This document shows positions 3,316 to 23,394 of a stretch of 64,000 nt of DNA, piece after piece (within the stretch, counting starts at the first letter, position 1; every line of letters begins with the position of its first letter). Source of the stretch: a virus. The position numbers and the translations under genes were made by a program. The DNA lies in IMG/VR virus record IMGVR_UViG_3300013006_000018. One strand, given 5' to 3'. The notes under the pieces were generated by a model. The model made no database searches. It saw nothing but the letters and a program-made list of their open reading frames with translations, and was not told the DNA's origin.

Positions 3316-5451
3316 TTATTTCGTAAGACCACATAGTAAGGGCTCTCTTAGATCGTTAGAAACCATATCTAATTCTATCGATCCAGGCAGAGTAATTAAA
3401 TTGTCATATATTATAACATTCTTATAGATTGGTGTTCTTACATATACCAAGGGATCGCCAATACACAACAGCGTACCTACACCTGCAAATAAGTTACTTG
3501 AAACAGTGGTATATGCCGTATCACCTTGCAACCACGAATTGATATGATTCACTCCAAGAACACCCCAGCCCGGCTCATAAAGATGACCTACCCAAGTTAT
3601 GGGCGTATTCTCATATCGGGACCCCCCGAAAGCGCTTGGAGCGAAATATTGACAGTAATGTGAATGCTTAATAGGTCTCAAGCCGGCTTTATATTCTGTA
3701 GAATTCATAAATGCTGAAAATGTTTTGACTCCGGTATAAGAAGAGGGAAATGAACCCCAGGAAGGTACTAAGCCGGAATATGGTCCATAGGAACCTCCAC
3801 CCATTGCACCGTTAAATGATTCGAAAGTGAAGATAAAATACCAACCATCTTTCTTTTCTGGGTTGTTGAAGGTAAGCTTACCGCTGCTTCCTGGATCCAT
3901 GAAATAAGAAAGTGCAGATAACCCAGCTACTTCTTCACCATTTATATTATATTGATAGGGACCGTTAGGATATATGTACCTTCTACCATTGAATCCCCAA
4001 GTACCGAAGTAAGATATTTCTCCTCCGCTGAGATTTCCGGTATCGTGAGGCCACTTACTACTTCTATCACAAAATATTCCGGTATTAGGTCTGTTTAATG
4101 TCTGGGTAGTTCTCCCAGACCGATAGAGATAAAAATCTTTGATATTATTATACGTATTATCTGGAAGATTATAAAATGTAGAACCATATAGATTACTATC
4201 TTCTGCATATGCACATAACCTGTGGTTGTATAGATAAATACCTTCTGACTGCGCTCGAGATAATTTATCTATATAAGCTATCATATCTTCCTTATATTGT
4301 GCATTTAAGTGAAAAGGAAATATTCCAGTATCCGTCTTTAGTTTGTAAGTAAGCCCTGAAAGCCCAGATACAAGACTGGTAAGATAAGGTACTTCTGTTG
4401 CAGCGGTATCTGTAATAAGAAGAGGCATATCAATCGAGAATACTATATAGTTGGTACCGGGGTTATTATTAATATAATTAACTACTGCATTGCTGACATG
4501 CGTTTTATAATTAACTTCATTTATTAAATCATACTTTCTGCATCCTTCGTATGGTACATTTACATCAGCACCCGACTCACTTATAATAACTGTACCGCTA
4601 GAATTTCTTCTTTGAGGATATACAGGCGAGATAATGTTTAATCCTACCTTATTAACCTTAGAAAATGTAGGTCTATTATCTGTATAATAGTTGGCCACTT
4701 CAATACTCTCGGAGCTATTAATATTATAAAATACAACAACCTCTTCTCTTGCTATATCTTCATAATTTATAGTAGGAGTAACTGTGGGTGTTATGGTTGG
4801 TGTAACTGTGGTTGTAGGCGTCTGTGTCGGTGAAGGTGTTTGGGTTGGGGTATTAGAGGGCACCGGGGTAGCTGTTGTTGTAGGAGTCGCTGTTAAAGTT
4901 GTTGTGTTTGTAGGTGTAACCGTGGGTGTAGTTGTTGTTGTGGGCGTTGATGTAGCAGCTGGTGTCTTGGTAGCTGTGGGCGTTGGCGTGGAAGTACTCC
5001 CTGCTGTCTGTGTTGGCGTTGTAGTTCGTGTTGGTGTATTTGTGGGTGTTTGGGTGTTTGTTTGTGAAGGTGTTGATGTAAAAGTCGGTGTTTGAGTAGC
5101 AGTGGTGGTGGGTGTAGCCCCTATAGTTACAGATGGCGTCGGGGTAACTGTTGTTGTGGGCGTTATTGTGGATGTCAGGCTTGGTGTACATGTAGGTGTC
5201 TCTGTATTAGTGGGCGTTACAGAGGGGGTCGGTGTGATTGTTGTTGTGGGCGTTATTGTGGATGTCAAGCTTGGTGTGCATGTAGGTGTCTCTGTATTAG
5301 TGGGCGTTACAGAGGGGGTCGGGGTAACTGGTATTTGCTGATCTCTTGCATTGGCACCTCCTAAGCGAACAATATCTTCATATCGTATTGCATCTGTACG
5401 ACGCAAACGCTTTTGTCTACCGAGCTGGAAAGGATTAGTTACAACGGCCAT
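3316..5451 (-). CDS. Thr/Pro-stalk protein with TIGR03790-like domain (putative virion protein)
   Basis: N-terminal LGRQKRL..GG segment, ~185-aa T/P tract, then VVFYN..S.ES.EVANYY...RP and C-terminal GHLYEP...GDPL resembling the TIGR03790 family. Confidence 0.65.
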   Translation of the reverse strand: MAVVTNPFQLGRQKRLRRTDAIRYEDIVRLGGANARDQQIPVTPTPSVTPTNTETPTCTPSLTSTITPTTTITPTPSVTPTNTETPTCTPSLTSTITPTTTVTPTPSVTIGATPTTTATQTPTFTSTPSQTNTQTPTNTPTRTTTPTQTAGSTSTPTPTATKTPAATSTPTTTTTPTVTPTNTTTLTATPTTTATPVPSNTPTQTPSPTQTPTTTVTPTITPTVTPTINYEDIAREEVVVFYNINSSESIEVANYYTDNRPTFSKVNKVGLNIISPVYPQRRNSSGTVIISESGADVNVPYEGCRKYDLINEVNYKTHVSNAVVNYINNNPGTNYIVFSIDMPLLITDTAATEVPYLTSLVSGLSGLTYKLKTDTGIFPFHLNAQYKEDMIAYIDKLSRAQSEGIYLYNHRLCAYAEDSNLYGSTFYNLPDNTYNNIKDFYLYRSGRTTQTLNRPNTGIFCDRSSKWPHDTGNLSGGEISYFGTWGFNGRRYIYPNGPYQYNINGEEVAGLSALSYFMDPGSSGKLTFNNPEKKDGWYFIFTFESFNGAMGGGSYGPYSGLVPSWGSFPSSYTGVKTFSAFMNSTEYKAGLRPIKHSHYCQYFAPSAFGGSRYENTPITWVGHLYEPGWGVLGVNHINSWLQGDTAYTTVSSNLFAGVGTLLCIGDPLVYVRTPIYKNVIIYDNLITLPGSIELDMVSNDLREPLLCGLTK
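5138..5330. repeat. 90-bp tandem duplication (~2.1 copies) encoding [29 protein letters not shown](I/V)
   Basis: Near-identical units begin at 5138, 5228 and 5318. Confidence 0.9.
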
Positions 5452-5454
5452 ATA

Positions 5455-8400
5455 TTAATTAGGTTGTAGTAACCACCTCCCGCTCAGTGAAAGTGAAATA
5501 TTAGAAGGTTTTACAACAAGCGTACCATCATCATTAGCTAACGAATATTTATTATAGATATAATTTCTTCCCGCAGCATTCACTAAGAGGAAATCTGTAT
5601 ACTTTAAATAGTTTCTTAAATCTGTAATTGTATTTACAATAACCGGGGTAATTGGCCGGAGTACATTACCGGAAACAGTAAAGCCCAGGGTATCAACAAA
5701 ACCGTTATCTCCATATATATCCGGCGATCTCCATAGATAAGGTGTAATTGCCCGGGCACATAAACTATTTGTGAGATATAAAGTATTATCTATAAATTTT
5801 TGATTTCTTCCAAGTAATGCACCTTCTCCGTAATTTAAAGCGACTGCACCGTATTCTCTAATATTATAGTTATCAGGCCACCAAGTCGAAATAGTATTTG
5901 TTAGCGTTTCATTTTCATCTACCCAGAACCAGAATCTATTATTTTTAACGGCTCCTCCGCTTGTAGAGTAATATAAAGTCCGCCCGAATTTGTTATTTGC
6001 TATGGGTGGATTTTCACCATACACATAAAAATCATTATCAATTATATCGGCTGAGCGATACACATCCAACAAATTTGAAATATATACCCCAGCATAAAAC
6101 TTATTAGCAGAAATAAGAGAATATCCTGAATCTGTGCGTATACAAGGTCTATGGCTAATATGGTCGGGGTGGATTGAGCTGCCTGATACCGCACCAAACG
6201 CGAAAGTATTGTTGATAGCTGAAGCTCTGGAGTACATAGTACTTATATTTCGAATAAAACCGCCACTAAACCATGTTGTTGGAGAAGAGAGAGTCTTTTT
6301 AAACGGGTTTGTTGGGTCACTCGGATCATTACTACCGTACAGCTCTACCCAGTTTGCAAATTTATCAGAATCCCCCGGTATGCTTGAAACCCTAGTCATA
6401 TATACGGTAAAGGGATATGATGAACCGGTAAGGATACTATCAATCGTATAGAAGCCGCTGCTCGCTGCATTATTTCCCGGGATCGGATCAGAAGTGCGAC
6501 CTTCTGCATGCTGAACAATTTCTCCTGGCCATACTTTATTTACAGAAAGATACCTAACAAAAGTTTCTGGAGTAAAGTTTGTTTCAATCTTTACAAATAC
6601 TTGCTTACCTATCGGGGGAACCGAAAGAGGAACCGAATTTGTACTCCAACCATTACCTAAGAAAGCACCATAACTTGGAGCATTTAAATATAAACCTTCC
6701 ACTCCTACTTTAGAAATATAATTATCTTTTACTAAACAATCTCCCCCGGTATAAAATAAGAAACCATCAATGGGTAATTGATTTGCACAGTTAGGAGGCA
6801 TTGGACCAGTGTTACCTTCACAATAATTTCCTATAACTTCACTGGACTCAACTTCCCTTCCCCAATAGGTCATTTGCGACCCGCCTCTTGGATCACCGCT
6901 ATCACTTCCAAAAGGATGTAATAATGTATTATAATTAAATTCTAATTTCTTAATTCCCTTAAGTATATAATCTCTGTTAACAGTTAGGACTCTATGACAA
7001 TTATCAAACGTACAGCCTGTAATACTTATTAATTGAGTATTCAGATCTTTTAAAGGTGGTGGAACATAAGGATAATTTGAAGAAACCGTTATTCCCTCTC
7101 TTGTAGAAGCAAGAACACCGTAGGTTTCACTATAGTTGGGATCTCTTCTTATTATCTGAAGGTCGTGAATCTTGACACTATTAACCTGTTCACATATATT
7201 AATAACAGTAGAATGACCTACATTATTTCCTCCAAAAGGTGTGAACGTACACAATACAGTCATCTCTGAACCCATGCCCTGTAGGGTTAAGTTTATTCTT
7301 GTATCTTCATTATAGCCTTTATTAGATGGATACCATCCGACAGCGAGTAAGGTCCTTAGATACCTATAAACATTACCCCCAGAACCGGTGCCATTTCCAA
7401 TTCTAGTATTATTATAAGAAGATAGATTATATGTCTTAGCGGAAAGTTTTAAATTTACCGGTCCGTAATCAGAGCAATAATCAATAGCTTTCTGTATTGC
7501 AGAAGCATCATTAAAGTCAGCTCTATTACCTTTAGCACCCCACATTTCTACATTAGCGTAACCATTAAATTGTCTGATCCATCTTCCCGAGCTTCCAACA
7601 CTGATAGAAGTCGGTCTAATAATAGCGCCGCTGTCATCGACTGCCGTTGATGTTCTATCAAAGACGAACCAACCTTCACCGCCGTCATTAGGACTATAGT
7701 AACCATTAAGATATGCACTTAAAATGTAGGTTGCAATTCTTGTTGAATAAGAATCAGGGTAACCACCTGCATACCAGCTGATAGCACGCAGGGTGGTTAA
7801 TGCATCTACGTTAGTATATTTTATTATATTGTTTCTTTGTGTCTGCAGAGGGAAGCAATAATTCTTAGGAACAACACAATGTGCTGATTCTGCATTAGAT
7901 CCCATCTGAGAATACAAAGGTAATACAATGTATGCACTCAAGGGGATGTTGATGCTAAACACATTGTTCAGTATGCGCTGATTATATCCAATACCAAATG
8001 CATTGAATATTACTCCGGTATAATATGGTGTGGTGGCAGATGGGTATCCAATATTATTAAAAACTAAACCACCACTCACCACACCACCATCCCAGAAGGT
8101 GAATACATTGTTTGAAACATTGTCTCCATTTCCGTCTATTTGTATTGATGAGTTGTTGTATGGCTTTTCAGCTGCATATGCAGGAGTCCAACGAGTTTGG
8201 ACATCCTGTATTATAAATTTATTATTCTGAATATCACAGGAGGTGTAATTACTAAATTCATTATTGGATACATAAGCGGTACCTACTCTATCAAACGTAT
8301 TATTCTTAATAGTAGCTCGCCCATTAAGCAGTCGTATGGCCGGCTGATGAAATGCAAAAGAGCTTACTCCACCATAATTAGTATTGGCAAATGTCTCCGG

Positions 8401-11400
8401 TATATGTATATCCCCTCCAATAAATTTACAGTCTATTACGGAAACTGTTACATTATTGGTACGATCACAATTTGCTTTGACTAAACTATAACTACCGCTA
8501 TATGATTGACCCGCTGAAAGAGTAATCATATCTTTGTTTAAATAACCTACCGGATCATCTATGTCTGTACCGGACACCCGAGTACATGTTATTTGATAAT
8601 CACGTAGATTTAAGTTAGGATTTGGATAGGAAACATCTGTGATTGTATTGATTCTATAGAATCCTAAGCCTACAGGGGTAGCAAAAGCTGACTGTTTCTC
8701 TGGTACTATAATGTCATTCACATGGTACTCATTCAAGAAATACGAAGAGGCGACAGGATAAACACTAAATGTGAGAGAACCGCCAACCACTGGTTTAACA
8801 AGCGGTGTGGTGGCAGAACCGAAATGTACGGTAGGTGACCAACCCACATACAAGGTTTCCACCCATGTATTTGTTCCTGTGCAATTTGAGAATAGAGAAT
8901 TTTTGCCTGAATAGTTACTAAAACCATCTTTAGGTAAGTAGTTAGGGGAATTGACTGGATGCGTAGAGGGCGCTCCTTCCCAATAACAATCTACATACTC
9001 AGCATTCTCTACTTCACTACCAATGTTAAACATGGGTGCTCCGCCGCCCGTAAAGTACGTATTACTACCATTAGGATAATAGAAATTACAGCTCTTCACA
9101 CTGAATTGACGCACACCATATGGTCTCCAGGATCTGATAATTTGAAAAGCGCTATGTCCATCTATAAAATTAACACCTGTGAATTGTATCATTTCTGTGC
9201 GCATGTCATCACCAGAATGGGTACCATACGGTCCTCTGTTACCACCACCCCAATTTGTAGTTGCATTGATAATGTTATTCCTATTGAAATGGTAGCCCGC
9301 GACAGCAGACAATTGTCTCTCTAGAGTCATATCATAAATCTTAAATGCACTTACCTTTTCATGTAAAGTGATCATACTTGTTTGATAATTATAACCTGTT
9401 ACACCTCTCCATTGATTCACGCCATTTGTACCTGATAAAGCTATAAGTCTTGTTAAACCAGCACCCGCTCCCTTCAAGGTTAACTTCACATGATTACTGC
9501 ATAGTTGAGGCGGTGGGCTAAATGCTGATGGTCCCGCCCAGATATCACTTGGTATTGCTCCAGCGCCTACATATAGGAATGTGATAGGATAATACACATT
9601 AGGTTCGCCGCCGATTCTGTAGCTAACAGAACTGAGGGTATATGTTTTTGCGCTAAAAACAATTGTTTCTATATTATTAGTTGCGCAATAATTAATGGCT
9701 GCCTGAATGGCAGGGGTATCATCATGCACACCGTTACCCATGGCACCAAACAACTCTGGTGTTATTGCGGTACCAGATAGGACCCATCGACCGGCATTAC
9801 TACTATTTATCCTATTCGGCTTTATATAACTACTACCATCATCTGCAACAGTTGCAACAGCATTGAAACTATAAGTGCCGATACCTGTAACAGTGATTTG
9901 TACATGACTAGCAGACAGTGTGGTTTGTTCGGTGCCGTCTGGTGTAGATCTTTTACCTACTAGTAGAGGTGTATATACATTACGCAAAGTAGCTATACTA
10001 TCTACCGCATTAAGATATACAGAATTATTGGTTACTGTATTGGTTCCTGGTCGACCTTCTTGCTGATCTTGATATATACCTGCATACAGAGTTGCAGATA
10101 ATGCATTAGTTATATATGTGTTATTATTGTATACTTTTGCATACTGATTCCTTGTACCATACCCCCCTACAGCAGAATAATAAACCGGAGTGTATCCAGC
10201 CGCAGGATTATATGGTGTCAGATTAGCGTCACCATCGCAGTTAATATATATTTGGGGATAGCTGTTATTTACAGTATTGGTAGTGTTCCCTTGATCATCG
10301 ACCCATAAGTTAAAGTTGTTATTGTATACTTCGTACCCGCTGTTTGCAATCGCCAGTGACTGTGTCTGGTATGTATATACAGGTGATGTACTACCAATCG
10401 AGCTAAGAGGTCTTACAGGTACTTGATTGTAAATATAAAAGTCATTATCACGAATGATATCTTTCTTATAAGGATCTGAAGGATTTTGTGTATGTAAAAT
10501 AACAGTAGACGATCCATAAAATTTATTACCTTGTATTATACTATTACCATTGTCAGCTCTGATAGCAGGATTATGCGCTAACTCAATAAGACGTGGTAAG
10601 TTTACACCAGACAAACAGTAACTAGGTAGAAAATGATTATCTTTCACAGTATGTGTTGTACCGAATAATAAGGTAGGAGCAAATAAGTTTATGAATGATG
10701 TCTGTTGTGTGGTACCTACAGCATAGGTCTCTTGGTTGGCCCATGCACTGCTCTCATAGATACCGCTCAACCGAGTTACATTCATAGAACCTGGTATTGT
10801 TGTAAGATTTACACTGTTAATTCTATATGTACCAATACTCCATCTTCTCCCGCCATTATCTGGACCCTGTATAGTCACGTATTTACCCGGTGTACACCAG
10901 TAATTTGTGGCCATTCTCCATGTGGCATCGCTCCAGTTACTATAATTAAGAGGAGGGAATTGTACGTTCAGCGTGGCACCAACAGCAGGTACCTTTACAG
11001 CACTACCATAATAACTCAGAGTTTTATCACTACCCAAGTACATGGACTCTACGCTGAATCTTGTGCATGTATTACCCTGTACATATGTATTATTAGGAGA
11101 GGAGAATATAAACCCATCTTTAGGTAAACCGCTTGTAGAGGAAACAGGTATTACGGAGGTACCCTCTGCAAAGTTGTTTATAACCGATAATGTTTGTACT
11201 TGTGACCCTTGAGAGAATGTAAGAATTGTACCCCCAGCATTACCCGGGCTCATGTTATCCGCCCCGGTATCACCGCCCCGGGGATAATAGAATTTGTTAT
11301 CCTTTATAATAACCGCCTCGGGACCTCCTTGCTCTACCAATGTATAAGCGGCTCCCATGACTGCGCTGTGACAGTTAATAAATATGTTATCTGAAACTTC

Positions 11401-14400
11401 AATGGTCTTTATCTGTGTTGGTTGCAAATGGCTGAGATCTGGCGCTCCATTAGAACCTGAGTAACCTCCAAAATATAAACCTTGGCAACGATACTCAGGA
11501 TAACCTGCACTTAATCCGGTATACTCGAAAGTGAACCCCGATATCTTACATGCAGAAAGGTTTGTTCCAGCCCGTAATATTGCCGCTCTATTAGTTATAC
11601 TTAAGCCATTATTAGGACGGTATTGCTGGCTAGCATCATTTACCAGTCGTGTATTATTACCATTAAAGTTAAGTTCAAATTTAAAAGCTGAAGATGGATA
11701 AAATCCAACTAGCAAGAAGGCACCAGGAAGATTTGTTTGTGAGTAAGTTGGTACTTGGCTTTCTGGCCAGATAGCAGGATTGCTGCTCATGCGGGCAAAC
11801 ATAGTATAACTGTTTGCATAAGAGCTAGAAAGATAGTAAGTCTTGTTACTAAAATTAATATCCTTAACATTATTTAAAGTGGCGAAGTCAATAGCAGCTT
11901 GAATAGCTGGTTGATCATCATTTACACCGTCACCTACAGCACCAAACTGTTCTGGTGTTAAATTAACCGTTATCCATCTACCAGGATTAGCTACGTTAAT
12001 TACCTGGGGTTTTATGGCAGTGACGCCATTATCTACAGCCATACTGCTACTATTATATATGTACTGTCCGATATTTGTTATAACAGCACCCAGCCCATTG
12101 TAAAGATACCCGGAGGGGTTACCGTTATTATTACCATACTGACGTAATCGGGCAACACTATCAAATCCATGCAACACATTGCCTGTAGCCGTAGCTGTAT
12201 CATATGCTCTATCCCCAAAGCCGTCATACACCCAAGACGTAGCACTGGGCACAGACATGTATGTGTGATTATTGCGGTGTATTGATCTAGCTAAAGACGG
12301 AGTACCATAGTTTGTGTTTTGTGTGATAAATGCTACTGGTGAATATCCCTTAGCTGCATTGTATGGGACTAAATTTTCATCGCAATTAAAATACACTTGT
12401 GGAAAGGAACTAGCCACATGAGATACAGTATTTCCATTTATGTCGGTCCACAGATTATATCTATTATTTTGTATTAGACCTGCACTCAGTGAAATCGATA
12501 TTCCAGATGTAATATAATTACGCACTATACCCGGTACAGAGTAATCTTGCTTGACAGGGTAATACGGGTCCTGATTATAATAATAAAAGTCGTTATCTTC
12601 TATTAGCCAATCGGAATGTACATCTGCAATACTACCGGCACAGTAGATCATACTTGATCCGCTGAATTTGTTGCCCTTTATGTGGTGATTACCTCCGTCG
12701 GCACGAATACAAGGATCATGAGATAACCGCGTGGCTCCTGCAGCAGCTCGGGCTGAGACATAACACAATCCCGTTTCAAACACATTATCTATAACCTCTG
12801 AATGAACCCCTAATCTGTGCATCATGTCATAAGGTACGAGGAATCTACTAGCACCGCTCAAATGCTGGCCAGCAGGCATAGTATTCCAATTGGCCCAATC
12901 TCCTCCACCATCAATACCGCTCACCCGTGTCATGTTACAGGTGTAATATTGAAGCGTATCTTTATTGTAACTGTTGATTTGATAAATGCCTCCATCCCTA
13001 CCATTATCACCGCCTCCAGACCAATTGATAGCTACATATTGACCTGGAGTCATCCCTACTTCAGGTATGGACGTGAGTACATCAAAACTAGTTCTAGAAG
13101 TTGGGGTATCCATAGGTAACTTAACAGTTATAGTACCGCCCACCACGGGCATAGTTATGTCTTGATAATTCGCAGGTCCAAGATGAAGACTTGTGACAGA
13201 AGTGCCCAGATACAGAGATTCCACCCACAAACGGGTCAGGGTATTGCGGGCAATGTTATTCTTAATACCCGTGAAGAATATGAAACCATCCTTAGGTAAT
13301 CCGTTAGGACTGTTTACAGGCATGTAAGTAGATCCTTCTACAAAATTATCTAATACATTTAATTCATAAGTGTCATTACTCATAAAGACAATTTGACTAC
13401 CGCCACGTTCATCTGCACTATCACTCCCTTTGGGATAAAGGAACTGACAATTGTTAATATTAGCTACACGGGTACCACTGCCTGGATACATAGAGGTACC
13501 CATATTAATAGCTCGATGACAGTTGTTAAAGGTACAGCTGTCTATATCAACGAGATCTCTGTTAACAGGATAGGGAGCTGGAACACCCCACTCCCCGGTA
13601 CCATTAGTACCTGCCACCTCTACTCCGATGCGGAAGTCCTGACCTACAAGTTCACCATCCCACAAGAGCGTTATGTTCTTTAAGCGGAATGTAGAGCACT
13701 GCTCTCTCACTGTGATTATTGTTTGCCGGCTCGCGCTTGAGCTTACGAAATTACTACCGCCCCATACCTTCTGCGAGTTTATATTGCTAGCACATAACAC
13801 AGTACCTGCAGTACCTAGCAAAGCAATATTAGCTCGACGGTTAGGTACATCAGGCCAATAACCTACATTTAATCTTGGTGCTACGTAAAATTGTTGATTA
13901 TATCCAGCATATCGCTTTACATTAGGATATGCTGTAGTATCTTTGGCACCAGCAAAAGCAGACAAGAAATATGTTTTTGCAGAAAATATAATCGCAGAAA
14001 TTGAGTTTACCGTACAGTAATCGATAGCAGCTTGGATGGCGGGAGCATCATCATTTATACCGTTACCTAAGGCACCAAACTGCTCAGGTGTTATGCCTTG
14101 TGGTGTAGGTGTTACCGTTGGTGTTCTTGTAATCGTTGGAGTAACAGCCGGCGTCGTGGTGACAGTAGAGGTAGGTGTAGCAACGGGTGTTCCTGTAGCT
14201 GTGGGGGTAACAGCCTGAGTCGTCGTGACAGTGGGTGTGAGTGTAGCAATAGGGGTACCTGTAGTTGTAGGAGTGATGGCCAAAGTCTTGGTGACAGTGG
14301 GGGTTGGTGTCGAAGTTACTCCTGCTGTCTGAGTTGGTGTAGAGGTTACACTTGGTGTCGCAGTTGGTGTGATCGTATTTGTAGGTGTGATTGTAGTTGT

Positions 14401-14628
14401 CGGCGTGACAGAAGAAGTAATAGACGGCGTGGATGTAACTGTTGGTGTAACTGTTGGTGTCTGTGTATTTGTCGGGGTGGGTTCAATGCTAGATGCTGCA
14501 TCTTGACTGCCTCCACCTCCTCGTTGCAGGACGTTTTGTACAGAAAGATAGTTGGAAGCTCTTAACCGCTTCTCTCTATCTAACTCCAGCTTTGTCTTAC
14601 CTAGTTGTAATTGTCTTTTAATAGCCAT
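5455..14628 (-). CDS. giant 3057-aa protein: N-terminal motif + T/P stalk + four tandem tailspike-like beta-helix modules
   Basis: Four (T)PE.FGA.G.G..DD.PAIQAAI-type starts; LP(K/I)DGF, VE.(L/M)Y and H.P.IR in each module; each module ends in a D(D/N)G..(I/V)(K/R)P..I....GRW-type domain. Confidence 0.85.
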
Positions 14629-14750: not shown

Positions 14751-14755
14751 ATTCT

Positions 14756-16531
14756 ATGGCAAATAAGAATTTTGCGCAGTTTCCTGCATATGGAATAACG
14801 TCAAATGGAATGCCTGTTAACGGCGCGGGACAATGGCTAGTAGGCTATAATGAGAGCACTGGTGGAGAAGTTAAAACCCAAGTTCGAGATTTGTTTACAA
14901 ACTTGTATCTAACTTCCGGTATTAATATGTCTTTTGATAACGGTAATGTTCCCGGTATTGCTAAAAATTTACTTATGGGCACCAATGCCGTGTTCCATCC
15001 TGACAATAGAGTACCTTCAAACAATGGTGGTATGTTCACTAATATAGTATTTGCAAGTTACTCTGTTGTGTCCGGCCAAGGCGGTATTCTACTTGGCAAC
15101 GCTCATACTTATTTCACAGGCGTACAGGATCCCAACCAACAATATTATGCAAGAATGAATAATCTTCTTCTAGGTAATGGTGTATCATTAAGTGCAAACA
15201 CTGGTCCTTGGGGTAGTATTTTTGCAGGCGGTAACAGCACGTACAAAATGCTTGATACAAAGAATCAACTTCTAAATTGGGGTAGCCCTATATTTGCCAA
15301 CGGTGTTGCTAATCTCATAAACGTTTTAAGCAGCACCAAACCCTATGTGGGTCAAGTGAATAATGGTAATCAACTTTCAGCTTATCATGCTGCACAGGGT
15401 TGCCCGATTTATCAAGGCGGCAACAATAACGAAATTCATTCCTCTGCTGAAGGTGGCTATATATGCAACGGTTTCAGTACTCCTGGCCCGTCTGACCAAT
15501 ATTCGGGTATCTTCCAGGTGGGCTGGGGAAGTAAGATATATGGGGCTAATTCAGGCATCGCGCAATTCTTTACAGCAGCTAGTACTATAAGTGGACAGTC
15601 CGGTAACTGTTTTCAATTCGGTGGTTACGGGAATATGATAGTTGAGAGTGAGGCGGTATATCAAATGGGGGGAAATAATAATTATATTTGTAATGCCGGT
15701 AATTGTGGCCGGGGCGGTACCATTAATTCGGGGTATGGTAATAAGATTGGTAATGTTGTACATAAAGCGCCGAACGGTACGGTATCACGGTGCCAAAATA
15801 CTTGCGGAAGTTTATTGAATGTAGGCGCAAATAATATTCTTTCTATTGATGACGGTGTTGTTGTGGGTAACAGTAATGATATATGGGCAACAAACACAGT
15901 TTTATTTGGGAATAACAATAAGATCGGTATGTGTTATTGGAGAGATAATTCCATAACTAATTCCGGGTCCCCAGGAGTTATATTTGGTAATAATCATTGC
16001 GTGGCAGGTAATTACGAAAATTACCGTGACTCAGGCCCGTACTTCGAAACAACAGATCTTAACACAACTATTGGAATGGGTATTTCAGCTTCCAGAAGTT
16101 GCGCAACAACAATTATAGGTACGAGCGGTACTTACGACTATATAGCGGGGGGACTTATATTCGGTCACGGGCACAATATACAAGGTGGGCTCGGGAGACC
16201 TATAGTAATGGGGTCCAATGTAAAGTGTGTAATAACTGACGGACAACCGATTAATGACGCGTTTGTTGTTGCTTTAGATAGAGAGAATATCAAGAGAGGT
16301 TCTTATACCCAATTAAAGAGGTCCGAACAGTTCCTTCTATCTGCTCGTGGGGGTACATTCATACCTGGTAAAGTCGGTATTGGCATTGATACAATGACAA
16401 CGGCAACTTCTGCTGCTCTGCATGTCAATGCATCTGGTAATATTATCTTTTCCAATCTTCCTACCTCAAACACCGGTTTACCTACTGGTTCTCTATGGAA
16501 TAATGGTGGGGTGTTGAGTGTGGCTCCGTAA
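14756..16531 (+). CDS. Gly/Asn-rich fibre-like virion protein
   Basis: N-terminal KNFAQF..WLVGY..E motif shared with 23404; G-x-x-N repeats; C-terminal LPTS...G.LWNNGGVLSV motif common in phage fibres. Confidence 0.7.
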   Translation: MANKNFAQFPAYGITSNGMPVNGAGQWLVGYNESTGGEVKTQVRDLFTNLYLTSGINMSFDNGNVPGIAKNLLMGTNAVFHPDNRVPSNNGGMFTNIVFASYSVVSGQGGILLGNAHTYFTGVQDPNQQYYARMNNLLLGNGVSLSANTGPWGSIFAGGNSTYKMLDTKNQLLNWGSPIFANGVANLINVLSSTKPYVGQVNNGNQLSAYHAAQGCPIYQGGNNNEIHSSAEGGYICNGFSTPGPSDQYSGIFQVGWGSKIYGANSGIAQFFTAASTISGQSGNCFQFGGYGNMIVESEAVYQMGGNNNYICNAGNCGRGGTINSGYGNKIGNVVHKAPNGTVSRCQNTCGSLLNVGANNILSIDDGVVVGNSNDIWATNTVLFGNNNKIGMCYWRDNSITNSGSPGVIFGNNHCVAGNYENYRDSGPYFETTDLNTTIGMGISASRSCATTIIGTSGTYDYIAGGLIFGHGHNIQGGLGRPIVMGSNVKCVITDGQPINDAFVVALDRENIKRGSYTQLKRSEQFLLSARGGTFIPGKVGIGIDTMTTATSAALHVNASGNIIFSNLPTSNTGLPTGSLWNNGGVLSVAP

Positions 16532-16560: not shown

Positions 16561-16815
16561 ATGAAGATTAGTTGTGTCAGCCTTAAGGCTATGCTCTATG
16601 TATCGATTGCTTCCTTCGCCGCTCTTATAGCTGACCTTGGAACAAAAAGAAGTTTTAGTGAATTCACTGATATTGATATGGCTATTATCTGTATCAATTT
16701 TGTTCTTCAAGGTCTCATTGCATGGAGAGCATATCTAGATCAGTCTGTTTCAAGAAGTAGACAAGAGAGAAATCAAAAAGAAAAAGTAGAACTTTTAAAC
16801 GAATATCGTAAATAA
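16561..16815 (+). CDS. putative holin (two hydrophobic helices, charged C-tail)
   Basis: Two TM-like segments, highly charged C-terminus, first gene of the endolysin-containing cluster. Confidence 0.5.
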   Translation: MKISCVSLKAMLYVSIASFAALIADLGTKRSFSEFTDIDMAIICINFVLQGLIAWRAYLDQSVSRSRQERNQKEKVELLNEYRK

Positions 16816-16819
16816 TTTC

Positions 16820-17269
16820 ATGAATAAACTACTGTTTTGTCTAGCTCTCCCTTTGATTATGATTGGCTGCGCAACAACTCCGTCTGGTGGTGGAAAAGAT
16901 TCACCACAAACTGCCGTTGAAAGCGCACTGCCCTATATTGCTCCTGCTGTTACACTTGCTTGTACAGTAGTTCTAGAACAGGCTCTTACACCAGAAGATA
17001 AAGTAGAAAAAGCTAAAATGATTAATCATGTAGCTGCTATTGTTGAAAGCCTAACAAGCGGTACCGCACCCTCTCCGGATCAACTTAAAAAGGCTCTAAC
17101 CGATTATCTACCTGTCGAAAAAACTCATTGGGTTAATTATGTAACAGCCGTAAAAGATATTTACGCGGCGCAATTTACAAGAGTTGATGGTAACACAAAA
17201 CTTGCAGTTGATGTGCTCCATGCTATTGCAAAGGGCTGTAAAGACGCCACCGAGCAATACGTAAACTAA
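16820..17269 (+). CDS. lipoprotein, unknown function (lysis cluster)
   Basis: Signal peptide with lipobox-like LIMIG-C. Confidence 0.65.
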   Translation: MNKLLFCLALPLIMIGCATTPSGGGKDSPQTAVESALPYIAPAVTLACTVVLEQALTPEDKVEKAKMINHVAAIVESLTSGTAPSPDQLKKALTDYLPVEKTHWVNYVTAVKDIYAAQFTRVDGNTKLAVDVLHAIAKGCKDATEQYVN

Positions 17270-17463
17270 TGGGCAGCTTAGTTACAGCCATCTTCAGTGC
17301 CATAAATGGTATCTTTACGGCTATTAACAATGTTTTCGGACACAAGAATGCTCCAGAAATGAAGGAAAGAGATAAAGCACAAAAAGAAACAAACTATCAA
17401 AGTGACATTGAACAAGCTTTGAAGGAAAAAGATATTGAAAAAGTTAGAAATACTCTTAGCTAG
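17269..17463 (+). CDS. small membrane-anchored protein, possible inner spanin component
   Basis: Amphipathic/hydrophobic N-terminus, charged helical tail; overlaps the downstream lipoprotein gene. Confidence 0.4.
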   Translation: MGSLVTAIFSAINGIFTAINNVFGHKNAPEMKERDKAQKETNYQSDIEQALKEKDIEKVRNTLS

Positions 17464-17857
17464 TATCTTTTGCATAGCTCTAACTAGCTGTACAACTGTC
17501 ACACCAGACAAGATTCAAGATAACGTTGCTTCATACGACAGCTCAACACCTGCACAGTACAATAAACATAACGGCGGTGTTATCGGGTTGCTTGAAGATG
17601 GTATTATTATAACCAAAAGCTCCAGAGACAAGTACAACAATTTGATCGAGATGTATAAGATCAAGTTAAAGAAAGATAAAGCGGTAGAGCTTCAAAAAGA
17701 TGCTGGCATCAAGGCTTTTAAAGACAAATTTAACAACGAGCTATATATCCTAGATAATGAACATGCCGTTTATTTTGCACTTATGAATTCTTGGTTAAGA
17801 GAGAAAGTCTCTCAAGATTCTATCATTGATAAAGCGGTTGACAGAATTAACAACTAA
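17435..17857 (+). CDS. lipoprotein, possible outer spanin
   Basis: Lipobox ALTS-C; start overlaps the previous ORF by 29 bp in another frame. Confidence 0.5.
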   Translation: MKKLEILLASIFCIALTSCTTVTPDKIQDNVASYDSSTPAQYNKHNGGVIGLLEDGIIITKSSRDKYNNLIEMYKIKLKKDKAVELQKDAGIKAFKDKFNNELYILDNEHAVYFALMNSWLREKVSQDSIIDKAVDRINN

Positions 17858-18306
17858 TGGTGCAGGAGATTATAACTTGGGCTCAAGTAGAGCATATATG
17901 CCTTGATGTTAGTCCTAAGCTTAAAAAACCTGATGCTATTATAGCTATAGGCAGAGGCGGCTTTGTGCCTGCTGCGATTCTTTCTAATCGCTTGGATGTA
18001 AGAATGGTTGTTAATTACGGCACCCAAAGTTATTTCGATAAAGAGCAAGCGTCTATTAGAGTCACACAGCGACCTGATTTGAGCTTCCTTACAGAATATA
18101 AAGACAAAAATATTTTAATTGTAGATGACATATCTGATAAAGGGCATACGTTGAAACATATTGTAAATTATTTCAAACAATACGGGTTTAATAACTTAGA
18201 GACATTTACACTGTTTACTAAAACAGGTACCGCATATGTACCTAACTGGTATTCAAAAGAATATGCTAAAGATGTATGGTTAGTATTTCCTTGGGAGAGT
18301 AAATGA
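17857..18306 (+). CDS. type I phosphoribosyltransferase (xanthine/hypoxanthine-guanine PRT-like)
   Basis: IAIGRGG, PRPP-binding ILIVDDISDKGHTL, C-terminal WLVFPWE. Confidence 0.85.
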   Translation: MVQEIITWAQVEHICLDVSPKLKKPDAIIAIGRGGFVPAAILSNRLDVRMVVNYGTQSYFDKEQASIRVTQRPDLSFLTEYKDKNILIVDDISDKGHTLKHIVNYFKQYGFNNLETFTLFTKTGTAYVPNWYSKEYAKDVWLVFPWESK

Positions 18307-18803
18307 GCGATCGTTTCAAGAAAGCCATTGTATTCGTCTTAGATGCTGAAGGGGGTTATACCAATGACCCTGTTGATCCAGGTGGTGAAACAAATTTTGG
18401 AATTGATAAAAGAAGTCATCCAAACATTGATATTAAGAATCTCACAAAAGAATTAGCCATTGACATCTACTTCAACGAATACTGGACAAAATTTGGATGT
18501 GATAGATTTACGTGGCCTGTTGATTTGGTTTATTTTGACTGTTGTGTGAATACAGGTCAAAAACAGGCTAATAAATTGTTACAGCGTGCTGTTAATACAG
18601 AAGTAGACGGTGTTATAGGACCTAAGACATTAAAGGCTGTCAGTGAGTCTGACCCTGTAAGTCTTGCAGATAAAATGATAGCTAAACGGCAGGCATTCTA
18701 TGAGTCTTTAGCAAAGCAAAAACCCAGTCTGAAGAAGTTTCTAAAAGGCTGGTCAAATAGAAATAGTAACTTAAAAGCGTTTATAAAAAAAGCCGGTTTT
18801 TGA
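18303..18803 (+). CDS. endolysin, glycoside hydrolase family 108 with peptidoglycan-binding domain
   Basis: EGGYTNDPVDPGGETNFGI, LQRA...DGVIGPKTL, F.KGW.NR. Confidence 0.92.
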   Translation: MSDRFKKAIVFVLDAEGGYTNDPVDPGGETNFGIDKRSHPNIDIKNLTKELAIDIYFNEYWTKFGCDRFTWPVDLVYFDCCVNTGQKQANKLLQRAVNTEVDGVIGPKTLKAVSESDPVSLADKMIAKRQAFYESLAKQKPSLKKFLKGWSNRNSNLKAFIKKAGF

Positions 18804-18815
18804 TAAGGAACCGGC
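18792..18815. terminator. hairpin between convergent genes (probable terminator)
   Basis: GCCGGTT...AACCGGC inverted repeat flanked by A tracts. Confidence 0.5.
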
Positions 18816-18831
18816 AAACCTTCAATCAGAA

Positions 18832-19158
18832 CTACTCTGATTTAGAACCCCATTTTCCGTTGAAGCTAAGTGCCTTTTTCAAGAACTCAGCTGAAATTGG
18901 AGCATTGTAGTCAGTAACACCGAGTATCTGGCGAGTCTCCTCAACCGTCTTACCAGCGCGAAGATGTTTTAGTGCTTCGCGGCTAATGTAATGCTTGAGA
19001 TAGTTCTCAACAGAGCTGGCTTTACCAGCTTTGGACTCCAAATACGCCCTGTTAGTCAGGCGTGATTTACCAGTAATGATACAAGTTAAACGAGGAGTAA
19101 CATTCTCCCGTGTGCTTGTAGCAGTCTTGGCTGTTGTATCAGTAGAAGTTGCGTTCAT
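18832..19158 (-). CDS. hypothetical basic protein, paralogue of 31776..32315
   Basis: CIITGK..SVE...HYISREA.K.L motif; strong SD AAGGAGGT upstream. Confidence 0.8.
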   Translation of the reverse strand: MNATSTDTTAKTATSTRENVTPRLTCIITGKSRLTNRAYLESKAGKASSVENYLKHYISREALKHLRAGKTVEETRQILGVTDYNAPISAEFLKKALSFNGKWGSKSE

Positions 19159-19321
19159 AAATTACCTCCTTTCTTCGCTGTTAATTTTAAAATGCATCAG
19201 AGGCTGATGCGGTTGTTTACTCTTATCACCAACCCATTGTAGGTGATAGAAGGCCTATTGCAAGAAAAATTCATTCTTTTTGTAAATCTTTTTAACATTT
19301 TTATATTTTTATATAAAAAAA

Positions 19322-19394
19322 TGGCCCAGGTGGGATTCGAACCCACACTTGAGCGATTTTAAGTCGCTTGCCTCTGCCGTTGGGCTACAGGGCC
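19322..19394 (-). tRNA. tRNA-Leu(UAA), short variable loop
   Basis: Cloverleaf GGCCCTG...AGCGA-CTTAAAA-TCGCT-CAAGT-GTGGG-TTCGAAT-CCCAC. Confidence 0.9.
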
Positions 19395-19397
19395 GAA

Positions 19398-19529
19398 TCA
19401 TTTGTATTTGAAAATCTTCTTACCTTTTTTCGTAGCAAAAGGCTTTTGGGTGGATGACCAATTTATGTCATCAAAATTATTTTTAAACTTCTTACTAAAG
19501 CAATTTCTGGGTTTGGAACCTTTACTCAT
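19398..19529 (-). CDS. small basic hypothetical protein (MSKGSKPRNCFSKKFKNNFDDINW..., 43 aa; not in ORF track)
   Basis: TACAAT-N6-ATG leaderless start, open to TGA at 19398. Confidence 0.55.
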   Translation of the reverse strand: MSKGSKPRNCFSKKFKNNFDDINWSSTQKPFATKKGKKIFKYK

Positions 19530-19584
19530 TGCTCTATTGTATGAAATAGAAGAATGAAAATCCAGAATTGGTTATAAATATTAA

Positions 19585-19656
19585 TGGGTCGTGTAGGATT
19601 TGAACCTACAACCTACTCCTTAAAAGGGAGCAGCTCTACCATTGAGCTAACGACCC
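19585..19656 (-). tRNA. tRNA-Lys(UUU)
   Basis: GGGTCGT acceptor, GCTCC-CTTTTAA-GGAGT anticodon arm, TTCAAAT T-loop. Confidence 0.93.
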
Positions 19657-19697
19657 GAAATTGTTGATATATTTTTGTATATAATAAGTATTAATGA

Positions 19698-20084
19698 TTG
19701 AAAGCCGGGCTCAGTAACCGTCAAATCGGAGCAATAGGGGTATTTAATACCGTACAAGCATTGTTCCGAAATGGATACAACGTGCTTGCCCCTTTAGAGG
19801 ATTTCACCGGATACGACCTTGTTACAGAGAAGAATGGTGTTTTTAAGAGACTTCAGGTTAAAACAACGTCCAAAATTCAAAAAACCGAAACCAAATATCG
19901 CTTTACTCTTGCGTGTGGAAGTGGTAAAAAAGTTCCCTATAAACATAAAAATATAGATTATATCGTTTGTTATGCAGCCGATATTAATAAGTTTTGGTTA
20001 CTTAAAACAAAGGACTGTAAGGTTATAACACAAAAATTAAGCGGTAAAACAGGGTCGGACTGGACTATATTTAAGAACATATAA
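19698..20084 (+). CDS. free-standing PD-(D/E)XK homing-type endonuclease (I-Ssp6803I/PDDEXK_5-like)
   Basis: GYNVLAP.ED..GYDLV.EKNG..KRLQVKT...IDYIVCY; sits between two tRNA genes on the opposite strand. Confidence 0.8.
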   Translation: MKAGLSNRQIGAIGVFNTVQALFRNGYNVLAPLEDFTGYDLVTEKNGVFKRLQVKTTSKIQKTETKYRFTLACGSGKKVPYKHKNIDYIVCYAADINKFWLLKTKDCKVITQKLSGKTGSDWTIFKNI

Positions 20085-20085
20085 G

Positions 20086-20158
20086 TGGGCGTACTAGGAT
20101 TTGAACCTAGGACCAAGGCATTATGAGTGCCCTGCTCTAACCGCTGAGCTATACGCCC
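20086..20158 (-). tRNA. tRNA(CAU), probably Ile2 (lysidine type) rather than elongator Met
   Basis: GGGCGTA acceptor with C4:G69, U12:A23, CTCATAA loop. Confidence 0.85.
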
Positions 20159-20159
20159 T

Positions 20160-20474
20160 CTAATTTTTACTAATAGCATCCACATAAGCTATACATGCTT
20201 TCATAGCTTCGTCAAGACTCTTGTACTTTTCTAAAGTTTGGATCACTTCGGTAAATTCGGCCACATTAGCACCATTAACCCGCGGGATATAATCATCCTT
20301 GTCCCTTCTTACCGTTAAATAGCATGTCTTATAATCACTATATGTCCATAAAGTATTGTTTGCTTCAACCCAACTATTGTTATATTTGAATCTTTTTATC
20401 TGTTTGTTTGTTGGTTTGCTCTTACGCTGCATACCATTAGAGTTGTAGTTGATAAAACGCTCTAAATTGTCCAT
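20160..20474 (-). CDS. hypothetical protein
   Basis: 104-aa ORF with TTGATT-17-TATAAC promoter 5 nt before ATG. Confidence 0.7.
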   Translation of the reverse strand: MDNLERFINYNSNGMQRKSKPTNKQIKRFKYNNSWVEANNTLWTYSDYKTCYLTVRRDKDDYIPRVNGANVAEFTEVIQTLEKYKSLDEAMKACIAYVDAISKN

Positions 20475-20508
20475 ACCTTGTTATAGGTGAAATTTGAATG
20501 AAAATCAA

Positions 20509-20598
20509 TACCTCCGGTAGGATTCGAACCTACATTGCGCTCAAATCTAGAGCTTCACGAGTATAAGTCGTGGGTCTTAACCATTAGACGACGGAGGC
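20509..20598 (-). tRNA. tRNA with UAU anticodon (nominal Ile) and 22-nt variable arm
   Basis: GCCTCCG/CGGAGGT-A acceptor, GTCT/AGAC D stem, CACGA-CTTATAC-TCGTG, V-arm hairpin GCTC-TAGATTT-GAGC, GTAGG-TTCGAAT-CCTAC. Confidence 0.88.
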
Positions 20599-20649
20599 TA
20601 AATAATAGAAAATATAGGGTTTTTGCTTACGCAGGGTAACCCTAAACCT

Positions 20650-20706
20650 TTACGCGTCACTTATTCGCGTCGGCCTCCACCATTTCTTCTCTTCTGAAGA
20701 AAACAT
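20650..20706 (-). promoter_or_regulatory. leaderless 18-aa leader ORF MFSSEEKKWWRPTRISDA followed by hairpins (attenuator-like)
   Basis: TTGATT-16-TATAAT-N6-ATG; tandem TGG TGG; downstream TAGGGTT..AACCCTA hairpin plus T-rich tail before tRNA(UAU). Confidence 0.4.
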
Positions 20707-20775
20707 ATAAGTATTATAGGAAACATTACCGCTCAATCAAGTGTATTCTTAATAAAAAAAATTAAATAATTGGAT

Positions 20776-21690
20776 ATGGCATCTAGATATAATCCGAAAA
20801 TACCGAGCCGACGTGATCTAGCTCGTCAAAATCGAATAGATGATTCTAAGGTAGCCCTTGATTATAGAAGTGTAGCTTTAAAGCGCATGACAGCTCCACA
20901 AGATATAGGAATTGAACTAACCCCCACACCGACAATATCACTAACACCTTCTAACACTCCAACTATTTCATTAACACAAACAGAAACACCGCAACAAACA
21001 CCTACAGTTACACCCACAGGCTCTATAACCCCATCTGTTACTCCCACGCATACAACCACACCTTCCATAACACCCACCAATACAGAAACGCCTGCAGGGA
21101 CTCTACCAAGCACTCCCACACAAACTCTTACACCTTCACGTACTCCAACGAATACGGCTACTCCAGTGATCACTCCCACCTATACCACCACCCCTACTAT
21201 TACAAATTCTCCAACACCCACTAATACAGCAACAAATACAAGAACACCTTCTGTAACACCCACGAATACTATCACCCCAACCCGTACTCCGACACCTTCA
21301 ATTACCAGCACACAAACACCGACGGTTACACCCACAAATACAAAGACGCCCACAGTTACCCCAACGAACACTATTACCCCAACGAACACTATAACATCTA
21401 CATCAACACAAACACAGACACCATCTATCACACCCACGAATACTATCACACCAACAAATACTATTACTCCTACGAATACGAGAACACAAACACCTACAAA
21501 TACACAGACACCTACAGTTACACCAACCAATACTATTACACCCACGGTAACACCTACAAGAACAGCAACACCTCCAGTTACGCCTTCTGTGACACCTACA
21601 AGGGGTCAGGATATATTATTAATAGCGGATCCAGCAAGCTTAGTAGTTCAAATAGCCAATGCGGTAGATAAGGTAATACAAATAGGATAA
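20776..21690 (+). CDS. Thr/Pro-rich mucin-like putative virion protein
   Basis: LARQNRI..LDYRSV N-terminus, ~230-aa T/P tract, C-terminal [17 protein letters not shown]; ATG 7 nt after TAAATA. Confidence 0.8.
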
Positions 21691-21693
21691 TCT

Positions 21694-23394
21694 ATGGCTA
21701 TTCGACGTAAAACAAAATTTATAGTTAATAATAATAACTTAGCGCGTCAGAGAAGACTCGCGGGGTCGGATTATTTAGATTATAAAACAGTAAGCCTTTT
21801 AGGGGGGATGTCTGTTGCAGATAATGCAATTGAACCAACAACCACACCTTCATCAACACCTCCTCCAACACCATCAACAACCGCTACCCCCACAAACACA
21901 CCGACACCAACGATCACTCCTACAAATACATTAACACCGACACCTACATCAACATTAACACCAACAGTTACTCCAACCTTAACACCTACACCTTCCATTA
22001 CTGCTTCAGCTACTCCAACACCTTCAATTACCTCTTCAGTAACACCGACAGCCACAAAAACACCCACACCGACACCCACGAGAACACCACCTGCAACAGC
22101 TACACCTACTAGAACCCAGCCTGTAACACCTACAACAACCAAAACGCCTTCCGTAACACCCACAAAAACAATAACACCTACCGTAACTTCAACGTTTACC
22201 TCTACACCAACTAGAACACCGTCCTTAACACCCACCCAAACACCAACTAATACTCGTACGCCAACACCAACTCCTTCTGTTACCTCCACGTTAGGTCAAG
22301 ATATCTTACAAATATTAGACTCTGATAGTGTTATTGTTCAGATAGCAGACGCAGCAGATAAAGTTATACAAATAGGACCTGTGCCCACACCAACAATAAC
22401 ACCGACAAATACACGTACACCGTTTATAACACCTTCTACAACTGCTTCAGCAGGAGCGACACCAACTCCTACGGCTACAATAACGCCAACTAATACAGTA
22501 ACAGCGACACCCGGGGTAACACCAACTCCTACCCGTACACCTTCCATAACACCTACACAGACACCTTCATCTACTGATAGTAGAACGTTTATTACATATG
22601 GAGCTGCGGTTTCTGCTACTAAGTTAGATATAATCGCCGATGCACAATGTAATTTTGGTTTCTTTATGTACGGTTATTTCGGTATTCAAGCCGAAGATTA
22701 TTATCTCTTCAGCTCAACATTTAGTGATTATATTGAAACACCGATATATCAATACGGGGATGGTACTTGGAGAATACGTAATAGTGACGGGGATGTATAT
22801 TTCACTAATAGTTATCCTTTAGCGGATAGGTTCCCTGCAAATAACTGGCAACGGGGACCCTTCTTTGATACAAATTGTACTACATATTCAGCTGTTCCTG
22901 TATTTGTTGCTGCTGTTTTCCTCACACCTACACCAACACCTACAAATACCAGAACACCAAACATTACACCAACAAATACACCGACACCAACTAAAACACC
23001 TATAGCATGGCAAGCCTGCTTTACTCTTAGCGGTGCGGAAACTTTAAATCCTGCATTATCTGTACTCAATGGTTTTTATACAGGTAACTCAAACGATAAA
23101 CCTTATGGTTATTCAAATCCTACGGTTGGTAGAGTCTTCTGGAACGAGCTTAATTTAGGGTGGGAAATATATTACGATGACGTAAACTCACCTTATTATG
23201 GGACTAATTATTATATTATGGGTGGTACAAATAACTACGTTCCACCTTTTACTGGCTGGAGGACTGCGTTTGAGCCGTATGATATAGAAGCCCCTGTATT
23301 AATCACTAACTATGGAAATTGTAATATATTGGCGAGTATAAATAATCAAGATTTAATAGCTTCTATAAATGGAGATACTCTAGTTCAGATATAA
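21694..23394 (+). CDS. Thr/Pro-rich modular putative virion protein
   Basis: [18 protein letters not shown]-terminus; three T/P tracts separating a GQDIL..DKVIQIG peptide and two small aromatic-rich domains. Confidence 0.8.

Follow-up and report, generated by a model that had tools for sequence, protein, structure and literature searches.

The stretch of DNA analysed here, referred to throughout as the window, comprises 64,000 nucleotides of IMG/VR virus record IMGVR_UViG_3300013006_000018 and belongs to an uncultured T4-like jumbo phage from a clade of uncultured relatives. In its late region, four genes encode proteins that begin with the same short N-terminal tag, and we give a probability of about 0.6 to the reading that they form a modular appendage system, part of the equipment for recognising the host, in which the tag would plug into a socket on the particle and the tethers would carry or capture payloads. 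Two of the four proteins also bear a second motif (the C-motif, here called the clasp), which would serve to hold trimeric fibres. The four open reading frames (ORFs) are present as described in an earlier reading of this DNA, made from the letters and the ORFs alone (hereafter the original prediction), and are given here together with two fibre genes of the type that we call F:

3316-5451, minus strand: 711-residue protein; N-terminal tag at residues 1-37 (5341-5451), Thr/Pro stalk at about residues 38-238, 474-residue payload (3319-4740).
5455-14628, minus strand: 3057-residue protein; N-terminal tag (14503-14628), Thr/Pro stalk at about residues 48-178, four tandem tailspike-like modules of pectate-lyase fold (approximately 14103-11959, 11958-9769, 9768-7564 and 7563-5458).
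20776-21690, plus strand: 304-residue tether; N-terminal tag (20776-20904), 244-residue Thr/Pro stalk, C-terminal three-unit clasp (21604-21687).
21694-23394, plus strand: 566-residue tether; N-terminal tag (21694-21813), stalk, internal clasp (about 22306-22389), terminal clasp (about 23320-23391).
23404-25260, plus strand: 618-residue F-type fibre; conserved N-terminus of ~45 residues, 17-residue repeats, C-terminal Peptidase_S74 chaperone.
14756-16531, plus strand: second F-type fibre, 591 residues, with the same ~45-residue N-terminus; divergently oriented from the gene of the 3057-residue protein.

The tag is 35-40 residues long, and its core reads L-x-R-[Q/E]-x-R, some ten residues, Y-x-x-V and then a Gly. 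A protein was counted as a member of the family when it carried, within its first ~40 residues, L-x-R-[Q/E/A]-x-R and, downstream, Y/F-x-x-V and a Gly, a pattern seen in all four window proteins and in the relatives described below. The first 36-44 residues of the four proteins align on an invariant Leu-x-Arg-x-x-Arg, and Smith-Waterman comparisons of these segments gave z = 7.3-8.9 for the pairs 711/3057, 711/566, 3057/566 and 304/566 (named by protein length), with 0 of 2000 shuffles reaching the score. The tag of the 304-residue protein is tied in through the 566-residue protein alone, its z values against the other two being 0.3 and 1.4. When a hidden Markov model (HMM) of the four tags was used in a six-frame search of the window and 80 related loci, the matches were these four ORFs only. 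The shared N-terminal motif of the original prediction is therefore borne out, with four of the six pairs beating every shuffle. The Leu/Arg/Arg core is encoded by different synonymous codons in nine genes, which indicates selection at the protein level.

Two other identities for the tag were considered and dropped. A double-glycine leader does not fit, given that GG occurs in three of the four window tags and is missing from the 304-residue protein and from most relatives, and that the spacing is wrong; the scanned proteins included no C39 exporter. A capsid-targeting signal is implausible for beta-helix enzymes of 3057 residues. A word search with the tag of the 566-residue protein returned nothing.

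Each tag is followed by a Thr/Pro stalk, as had been claimed; the stalks of the four proteins measure 152-244 residues and contain 39-45% Thr and 16-24% Pro (~60% Thr plus Pro). Within the stalk of the 711-residue protein, a 90-nucleotide tandem duplication (5126-5305) is 92% identical between its copies, and the stalks appear to vary in length through the expansion of repeats. The idea that gene conversion is still at work among the stalks was dropped, since, apart from this tandem, the Thr/Pro repeats are just 60-75% alike at the DNA level.

Behind the stalks, the payloads differ. In the 3057-residue protein, four tandem beta-helix modules of ~720 residues share 25-33% mutual identity; the protein is a member of PF12708 by gathering score (E = 2.4e-12, 47.6 bits, cut-off 27) and matches tail spike and exopolysaccharide (EPS) depolymerase PHROGs, so that the four beta-helices originally assigned to it stand. 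The 474-residue payload of the 711-residue protein proved harder to place. It gave no match in a Pfam scan and nothing in a sequence search of the PDB, and a tblastn search of cultured phages with the 711-residue protein also returned nothing. A TIGR03790-like domain had been suggested; the protein has no match at E ≤ 0.1 in NCBIfam, TIGR03790 included, and the sole lead is a weak Atlas feature of 0.86. An AlphaFold2 model of the payload is of low confidence (predicted local distance difference test, pLDDT, 53.8; predicted template modelling score, pTM, 0.64), and the best Foldseek matches of this low-confidence model are gingipains K and R (E = 2e-4, template modelling score ~0.4), a weak hint of a clan CD (peptidase C25) fold. 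An Atlas search with the last domain of the 566-residue protein found nothing.

Signal peptides are absent from the four tagged proteins as judged by eye only. The claim that all four genes lie in TAAATA late units did not hold up: a TAAATA box stands 7 nucleotides before the ATG of the 20776 gene only, the gene starting at 14628 has one ~88 nucleotides upstream, and the remaining two are coupled to upstream genes.

The conservation of the motif in relatives was confirmed: over 20 proteins from related uncultured phages bear the tag, in every case at residues 1-40, some with a stalk and some without. A HMMER search of 1.84 billion representatives gave five true matches, all at residues 1-40, of which one carries the head of a 198-residue window protein that itself lacks the tag, and another adds a copy of beta-helix module 4. 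A wider tag profile and a payload search added P0017-P0020, P0023/24 and P0027-P0034, and further loci (L081/L082, L083, L108 and L109) hold 2-3 tag genes each. An IMG/VR scan with the 711-type tag returned nothing. The tag genes come in batteries: four in the window, three in L083, three in L108 and at least two each in L109 and L081. The 198-residue protein is one of two that have a stalk by composition and no N-terminal tag:

34137-34733, plus strand: 198-residue Thr/Pro-stalk protein.
34730-35572, plus strand: 280-residue Thr/Pro-stalk protein.

In the relatives, the payloads behind the tag include beta-helix depolymerase modules, leucine-rich repeats (LRR), and cupredoxin-like and gingipain-like domains. 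The layouts vary as well: the tag may run straight into LRR_5 (199 residues, no stalk), precede small beta domains on several stalks, or precede the 474-residue payload with or without a stalk, and this payload type is also placed behind a subtilase, behind RCC1 or behind no extension. In P0009 and P0011 the head type of the 198-residue protein is joined to the tag, and a beta-helix module is likewise found behind it. The tag occurs without a stalk in P0018, P0027/28 (LRR_5) and L083, and the stalk occurs without a tag in the untagged window proteins (P0005 and P0006) and in the gp15 fusions described below. Such varied combinations show that tag, stalk and payload are three independent modules. 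In L108 (1782-6544) and L109 (4001-6355), the last domain of the tag proteins shows a Cys-x2-His-x2-Met pattern that recalls blue-copper (cupredoxin) sites.

The clasp is a motif of 28 residues made of three tandem units of 8-9 residues. It ends the 304-residue protein and occurs twice in the 566-residue protein, where two small domains, with short stalks between, separate the internal from the terminal copy; a clasp HMM matched these three places only in the window. The 304- and 566-residue proteins are thus not, as had been stated, otherwise unrelated. Similarly, the cargo described as a short peptide only is indeed a short peptide, but the protein is not a bare stalk, for it ends in a conserved three-unit clasp that is predicted to hold neighbouring trimeric fibres. 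The clasp also ends ORFs of L081/L082, the near-identical relative of the 711-residue protein (P0010) and two minimal proteins of 73-78 residues (P0029; L083 7398-7619). The latter consist of a tag, a short linker and a clasp and nothing else, a composition that is sensible solely for a two-ended adaptor. The clasp profile found no match in five complete related jumbo genomes. In one genome, G001 (L089 8334-9947), a gene between gp15 and an F-type fibre of 1565 residues starts, by eye, like a clasp and continues as an RCC1 propeller (PF25390, E = 1e-52), and the clasp may also work at an N-terminus.

Some further observations concern the ends of these genes. P0010 is a 98%-identical copy of the 711-residue protein on a metagenomic contig of 226,760 bp; its C-terminus is a short Thr/Pro linker followed by a clear clasp, whereas the window protein has a different tail of ~33 residues (3316-3420) that is only vaguely clasp-like, and the difference looks like a recent C-terminal swap. 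The 304- and 566-residue genes lie in one frame, with TAA and one codon between them (21688-21696). A read-through fusion of the two was dropped because the frames differ in the relative L081, and the shared frame is probably a coincidence.

The position of the clasp relative to the fibre genes follows a rule. An IMG/VR scan for the fibre N-terminus gave 16 loci, and in 12 of them a same-strand ORF that ends 3-49 nucleotides before the F-type fibre finishes in clasp-type tandem units. The window obeys this rule, as the terminal clasp of the 566-residue gene ends 9 nucleotides before the 23404 fibre gene. When the clasp HMM was run over 495 ORF C-termini, seven of the eight best matches were ORFs upstream of fibres. 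In L083, the minimal gene abuts a fibre of 791 residues whose first ~45 residues match those of the window fibres 14756 and 23404, and the flanking genes show that the locus corresponds to the 20.7-25.6 kb region of the window. From the analogy with the L083 pair and from the gene-boundary rule, the 23404 fibre is proposed as the partner of the clasps. By sequence, the ~45-residue F-type N-terminus (window; L091-L106) forms a separate family among uncultured phages, with no sequence relative in the PDB or, by tblastn, in cultured phages; an IMG/VR scan with the 14756 protein returned nothing.

In at least four loci (L092, L098, L100 and L102), the protein upstream of the fibre belongs to the T4 gp15-like tail sheath stabilisers (PF16724, E = 6e-19 to 1e-16, 61-68 bits, cut-off 25). 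The L092 protein carries the clasp with no Thr/Pro stalk, and those of L098, L100 and L102 continue with a small domain, a Thr/Pro stalk of 75-110 residues and a clasp. These fusions place a virion anchor at the position that the tag occupies in this phage. None of the window's tag proteins contains a PF16724 domain, and the tag profiles A2 and A5 gave no match in five gp15-fusion fragments. These genes point to a recurrent design, in which a virion anchor, a Thr/Pro stalk and a clasp are followed by a fibre gene. The gp15 of G007, a tag-bearing record, is short (272 residues) and has no extension, and a free domain of 114 residues, the same that is fused into gp15 extensions elsewhere, is encoded next to it. 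Over its first 114 residues, a window protein of 319 residues (40945-41904) matches this free domain (E = 2e-9) as well as the domain in the middle of the gp15 fusions. Its C-terminal part is Fib_succ_major (PF09603, E = 1.8e-23), and the protein may offer a further means of mounting a payload close to the neck.

Using ESMFold2, we modelled the L083 minimal protein with three copies of fibre residues 1-150, alongside three controls. The clasp-fibre model scored 0.69, against 0.00 for the best of the controls; the pass mark, reached by 58 of 80 solved complexes and by 2 of 110 mismatched pairs, is only a rough guide for a design of 3+1 chains with its own alignment. Three runs share at least 95% of the contacts, with a partner pLDDT of at least 64. 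In the modelled interface, clasp residues 46-71 face residues 1-5, 22 and 26-29 of all three fibre chains, and each clasp unit touches a different chain. Recall of a known complex is unlikely, as the fibre N-terminus has, by sequence, no relative among solved structures or cultured phages. The tag half of the 73-residue protein lies outside the confident contacts with fibre residues 1-150 and, residues other than those named being uncertain, the model is silent on binding between tag and fibre. The model supports the view that the clasp binds the N-terminal tips of the fibre, and together with the gene-boundary statistics it makes a connector between monomer and trimer the best reading of the clasp.

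Taking into consideration (i) the position of the tag, (ii) its modularity, (iii) the two-ended minimal adaptors, (iv) the substitution by gp15 and (v) the precedent of phage KP32, described below, we regard a portable docking peptide as the best reading of the tag. We propose that all the tagged proteins plug non-covalently, by their tags, into one kind of socket on the particle, which would probably lie in the neck/tail-terminator region. The depolymerase-like beta-helices of the 3057-residue protein and the 474-residue domain of the 711-residue protein would be payloads fused directly, whereas the fibres 14756-16531 and 23404-25260 would be captured through the clasp, with the 304- and 566-residue proteins as their tethers. 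One clasp is predicted, with comparative support, to cap an F-type fibre trimer at all three of its N-terminal tips and so to join a monomeric tether to a trimer. Payloads of either mode would hang on flexible, possibly O-glycosylated tethers of ~150-245 residues. The Thr/Pro composition fits a mucin-type stalk, and the window holds a cluster led by a GlcNAc-transferase that could plausibly glycosylate the stalks:

45908-52694, minus strand: glycosyltransferase cluster of seven genes, with a GlcNAc-transferase (PF11397, E = 2.5e-75), GT11, GT7C/GT2 and three HtrL_YibB-like genes.

The common docking module of the original prediction therefore survives in its architecture, a modular tag with an optional stalk and a swappable payload, both here and in relatives, and docking is the best reading of its role because in relatives the same stalk and clasp are joined to a virion protein of gp15 type, at the place taken by the tag in this phage. 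The analogy with a cellulosome holds only loosely, in that many cargos share one plug type; the picture is nearer to branched or tethered fibres, probably at the neck, than to a mucin brush over the whole capsid.

Several observations weigh against this reading. The modelled complex is the L083 pair and not the window's own proteins, and its score expresses the confidence of a model rather than a measurement. The 3057-residue gene has no start-proximal late promoter. The tag profiles A2 and A5 found no match in the five complete related jumbo genomes, and the tagless complete genome G001 has F-type fibres, which are thus mountable without a tag. An AlphaFold2 fold of the tag, obtained on P0027 at low confidence, consists of two helices with a pLDDT of 37-47. 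Lastly, the clasp HMM failed to detect the clasp-like N-terminus of the G001 RCC1 protein, a match made by eye only.

Other roles for the tag have to be weighed against docking on the particle body. The tag could dock on another fibre, as a branch point like that of KP32 receptor-binding protein 2 (RBP2) on RBP1, giving a pure fibre-on-fibre network. The precedent of KP32, K11 and KP34 speaks for it, as does gene order: tag genes lie beside those of F-type fibres in both the window and L083, and they often follow directly on clasp-ending genes (21690/21694; L081). However, the tag genes of L108 and L109 do not adjoin F-type fibres and have varied C-termini upstream of them, the gp15 fusions put a particle protein and not a fibre at the position of the tag, and no T4 gp10-like branching domain was found in the window fibre proteins by Pfam and PHROG scans; we hold this arrangement to be unlikely. 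A role in oligomerisation or folding, for example as a trimer-nucleating helical hairpin, is a poorer candidate still. Beta-helix tailspike modules are usually trimeric, and the tag is predicted to form two short helices, but it also stands on payloads that are normally monomeric (LRR_5, cupredoxin-like) and on the 73-78-residue proteins, whose other end is a monomeric three-unit clasp, and a flexible stalk of 150-245 residues would uncouple the tag from its payload.

We consider it very improbable that the tag is a leader for a modifying enzyme or an assembly chaperone, such as one of the transferases that would decorate the stalks. The seven-gene cluster does lie in the same window and most window tag proteins have stalks; the independence of the modules, with tags that lack a stalk and stalks that lack a tag, argues against it. 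Least probable of all is that the tagged proteins form no part of the virion and are set free at lysis as soluble enzymes or binders whose tag attaches to a host structure. Some phages do have free depolymerases. Here, the genes lie inside a fibre cluster, with one late-type promoter and tight coupling to fibre genes, and in relatives the clasp goes with a structural protein of gp15 type.

The closest precedent for the tag is KP32 RBP2, in which a 29-residue N-terminal 'conserved peptide' is needed for incorporation into the virion and can bring a foreign enzyme into it (PMC13352976). There, a short peptide alone attaches a secondary fibre or spike, and enzymes of unrelated kinds can be exchanged behind it; the order of tag and then payload in the window fits this pattern, and the tag would likewise be the sole point of attachment. 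In the window, a long Thr/Pro tether comes after the tag, a genome has at least four proteins that carry it, and the phage is a T4-like jumbo myovirus whereas KP32 is a podovirus; the two are likened by architecture and not by peptide sequence. For the tethers, the podophages GP4, VP1 and A1002 offer rope-and-bead ('chain-like') fibres, in which dock segments each beta-augment a small fibre dimer (PMC13730344). The likeness lies in one extended polypeptide with repeated docking segments and separately encoded oligomeric fibres, and the 566-residue protein with its two clasps resembles such a rope. However, in the window system three tandem units are predicted to cap one trimer tip, the rope consists of low-complexity Thr/Pro sequence, and fibres of 590-620 residues with an S74 chaperone take the place of the beads. 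As the model shows one clasp per three chains rather than one dock segment per fibre dimer, the likeness is functional only. Docking peptides and monomeric ropes that hold fibre oligomers are already known; this system is set apart by the tag sequence, the Thr/Pro tether, the three-unit trimer clasp and the gp15 link.

The T4 neck, with gp15, the collar and the fibritin whiskers, gives a further comparison. A stalk and clasp on a gp15-like protein, as in the relatives, would set captured fibres at the neck like whiskers, and the window has a fibritin-like gene (44343-45260); the difference is that in the window the short tag replaces the gp15 domain. To our knowledge, T4 gp15 has no stalk-clasp extension, and the T4 whiskers are attached differently. 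The system resembles a cellulosome in its many cargos on one plug type and in its Thr/Pro-rich linkers between modules, but the tag is a peptide of ~35 residues and not a Ca-binding dockerin fold, and the scaffold would be the virus particle or a fibre; Pfam scans found no dockerin or cohesin homology. Virion proteins of mycobacteriophages are reported to be O-glycosylated by phage glycosyltransferases that decorate Ser/Thr-rich ends (Freeman et al. 2023, as cited in PMC12619734). Compared with that account as cited, glycosylation in the window is suggested by the stalk composition and the transferase cluster, and the acceptors would be long internal appendage tethers and not the C-termini of capsid or tail tube proteins.

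The rest of the window is in keeping with an AT-rich phage genome (GC content 32-42%) and includes 14 tRNA genes as well as genes of tailspike, tail fibre, endolysin and spanin-like type; many starts have a late-type TAAATA box close upstream. The hosts of related phages are likely to be Bacteroidota. The glycosyltransferase encoded at 51441-52694 shares 45-49% identity with its counterparts in Xanthomonas and Stenotrophomonas jumbo phages and 66-77% identity with ~200 IMG/VR contigs of up to 324 kb, and close relatives are carried by the 226,760-bp contig mentioned above and by another of 213,194 bp. The neighbours and payloads of the tagged proteins are typical outer-virion parts: the tail spike and EPS depolymerase PHROGs, the S74 fibre, the tail fibre genes and the fibritin-like gene, which is a candidate neck component:

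44343-45260: coiled-coil protein with weak PHROG matches to fibritin neck whisker and minor head protein (E = 2e-8 and 2.5e-9).

A lysis cassette (16820-18803) stands between both fibre blocks and consists of two lipobox-like small proteins (16820-17269 and 17435-17857), a phosphoribosyltransferase-like gene and the endolysin (18303-18803). The tRNA genes form two clusters (19322-20598 and 40207-42674) with tRNA-Thr(UGU) among them; no tRNA-Pro was seen in the window despite its Thr/Pro-rich genes. A 31-nucleotide sequence occurs in three copies that are 90-94% alike (26555-26612 and 33669-33699), two in tandem upstream of the 25838-26548 gene and the third near 33.7 kb, and could be a repeated promoter or operator.

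Beyond the four genes, we tentatively put forward, at somewhat less than even odds, that the clade uses a two-ended peptide connector code: a universal N-terminal plug into a multi-copy neck socket, a one-chain clasp of pseudo-threefold symmetry that caps a trimeric fibre and so overcomes the mismatch of monomer and trimer, and expandable glycosylated Thr/Pro tethers between them. Gene fission and fusion could then change the set of fibres and enzymes mounted on the particle, and their distance from it. The connector parts occur fused to gp15, as 73-residue adaptors or in forms of 300-560 residues. If the tag and the clasp do act as proposed, the tag (~35 residues) and the clasp (~25 residues) would be very small portable connectors, the clasp would be a simple joint between a monomeric tether and a trimeric fibre, and the gp15 fusions would show where on the particle the appendages are located. 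For hundreds of 'hypothetical' phage genes there would be an annotation rule, by which an N-terminal tag denotes an appendage protein and a C-terminal clasp denotes that the next gene is its fibre, and both elements would be candidate parts for fibre engineering in laboratory phages. Such a system would explain how large environmental phages mount and exchange many enzymes and binders on one particle.

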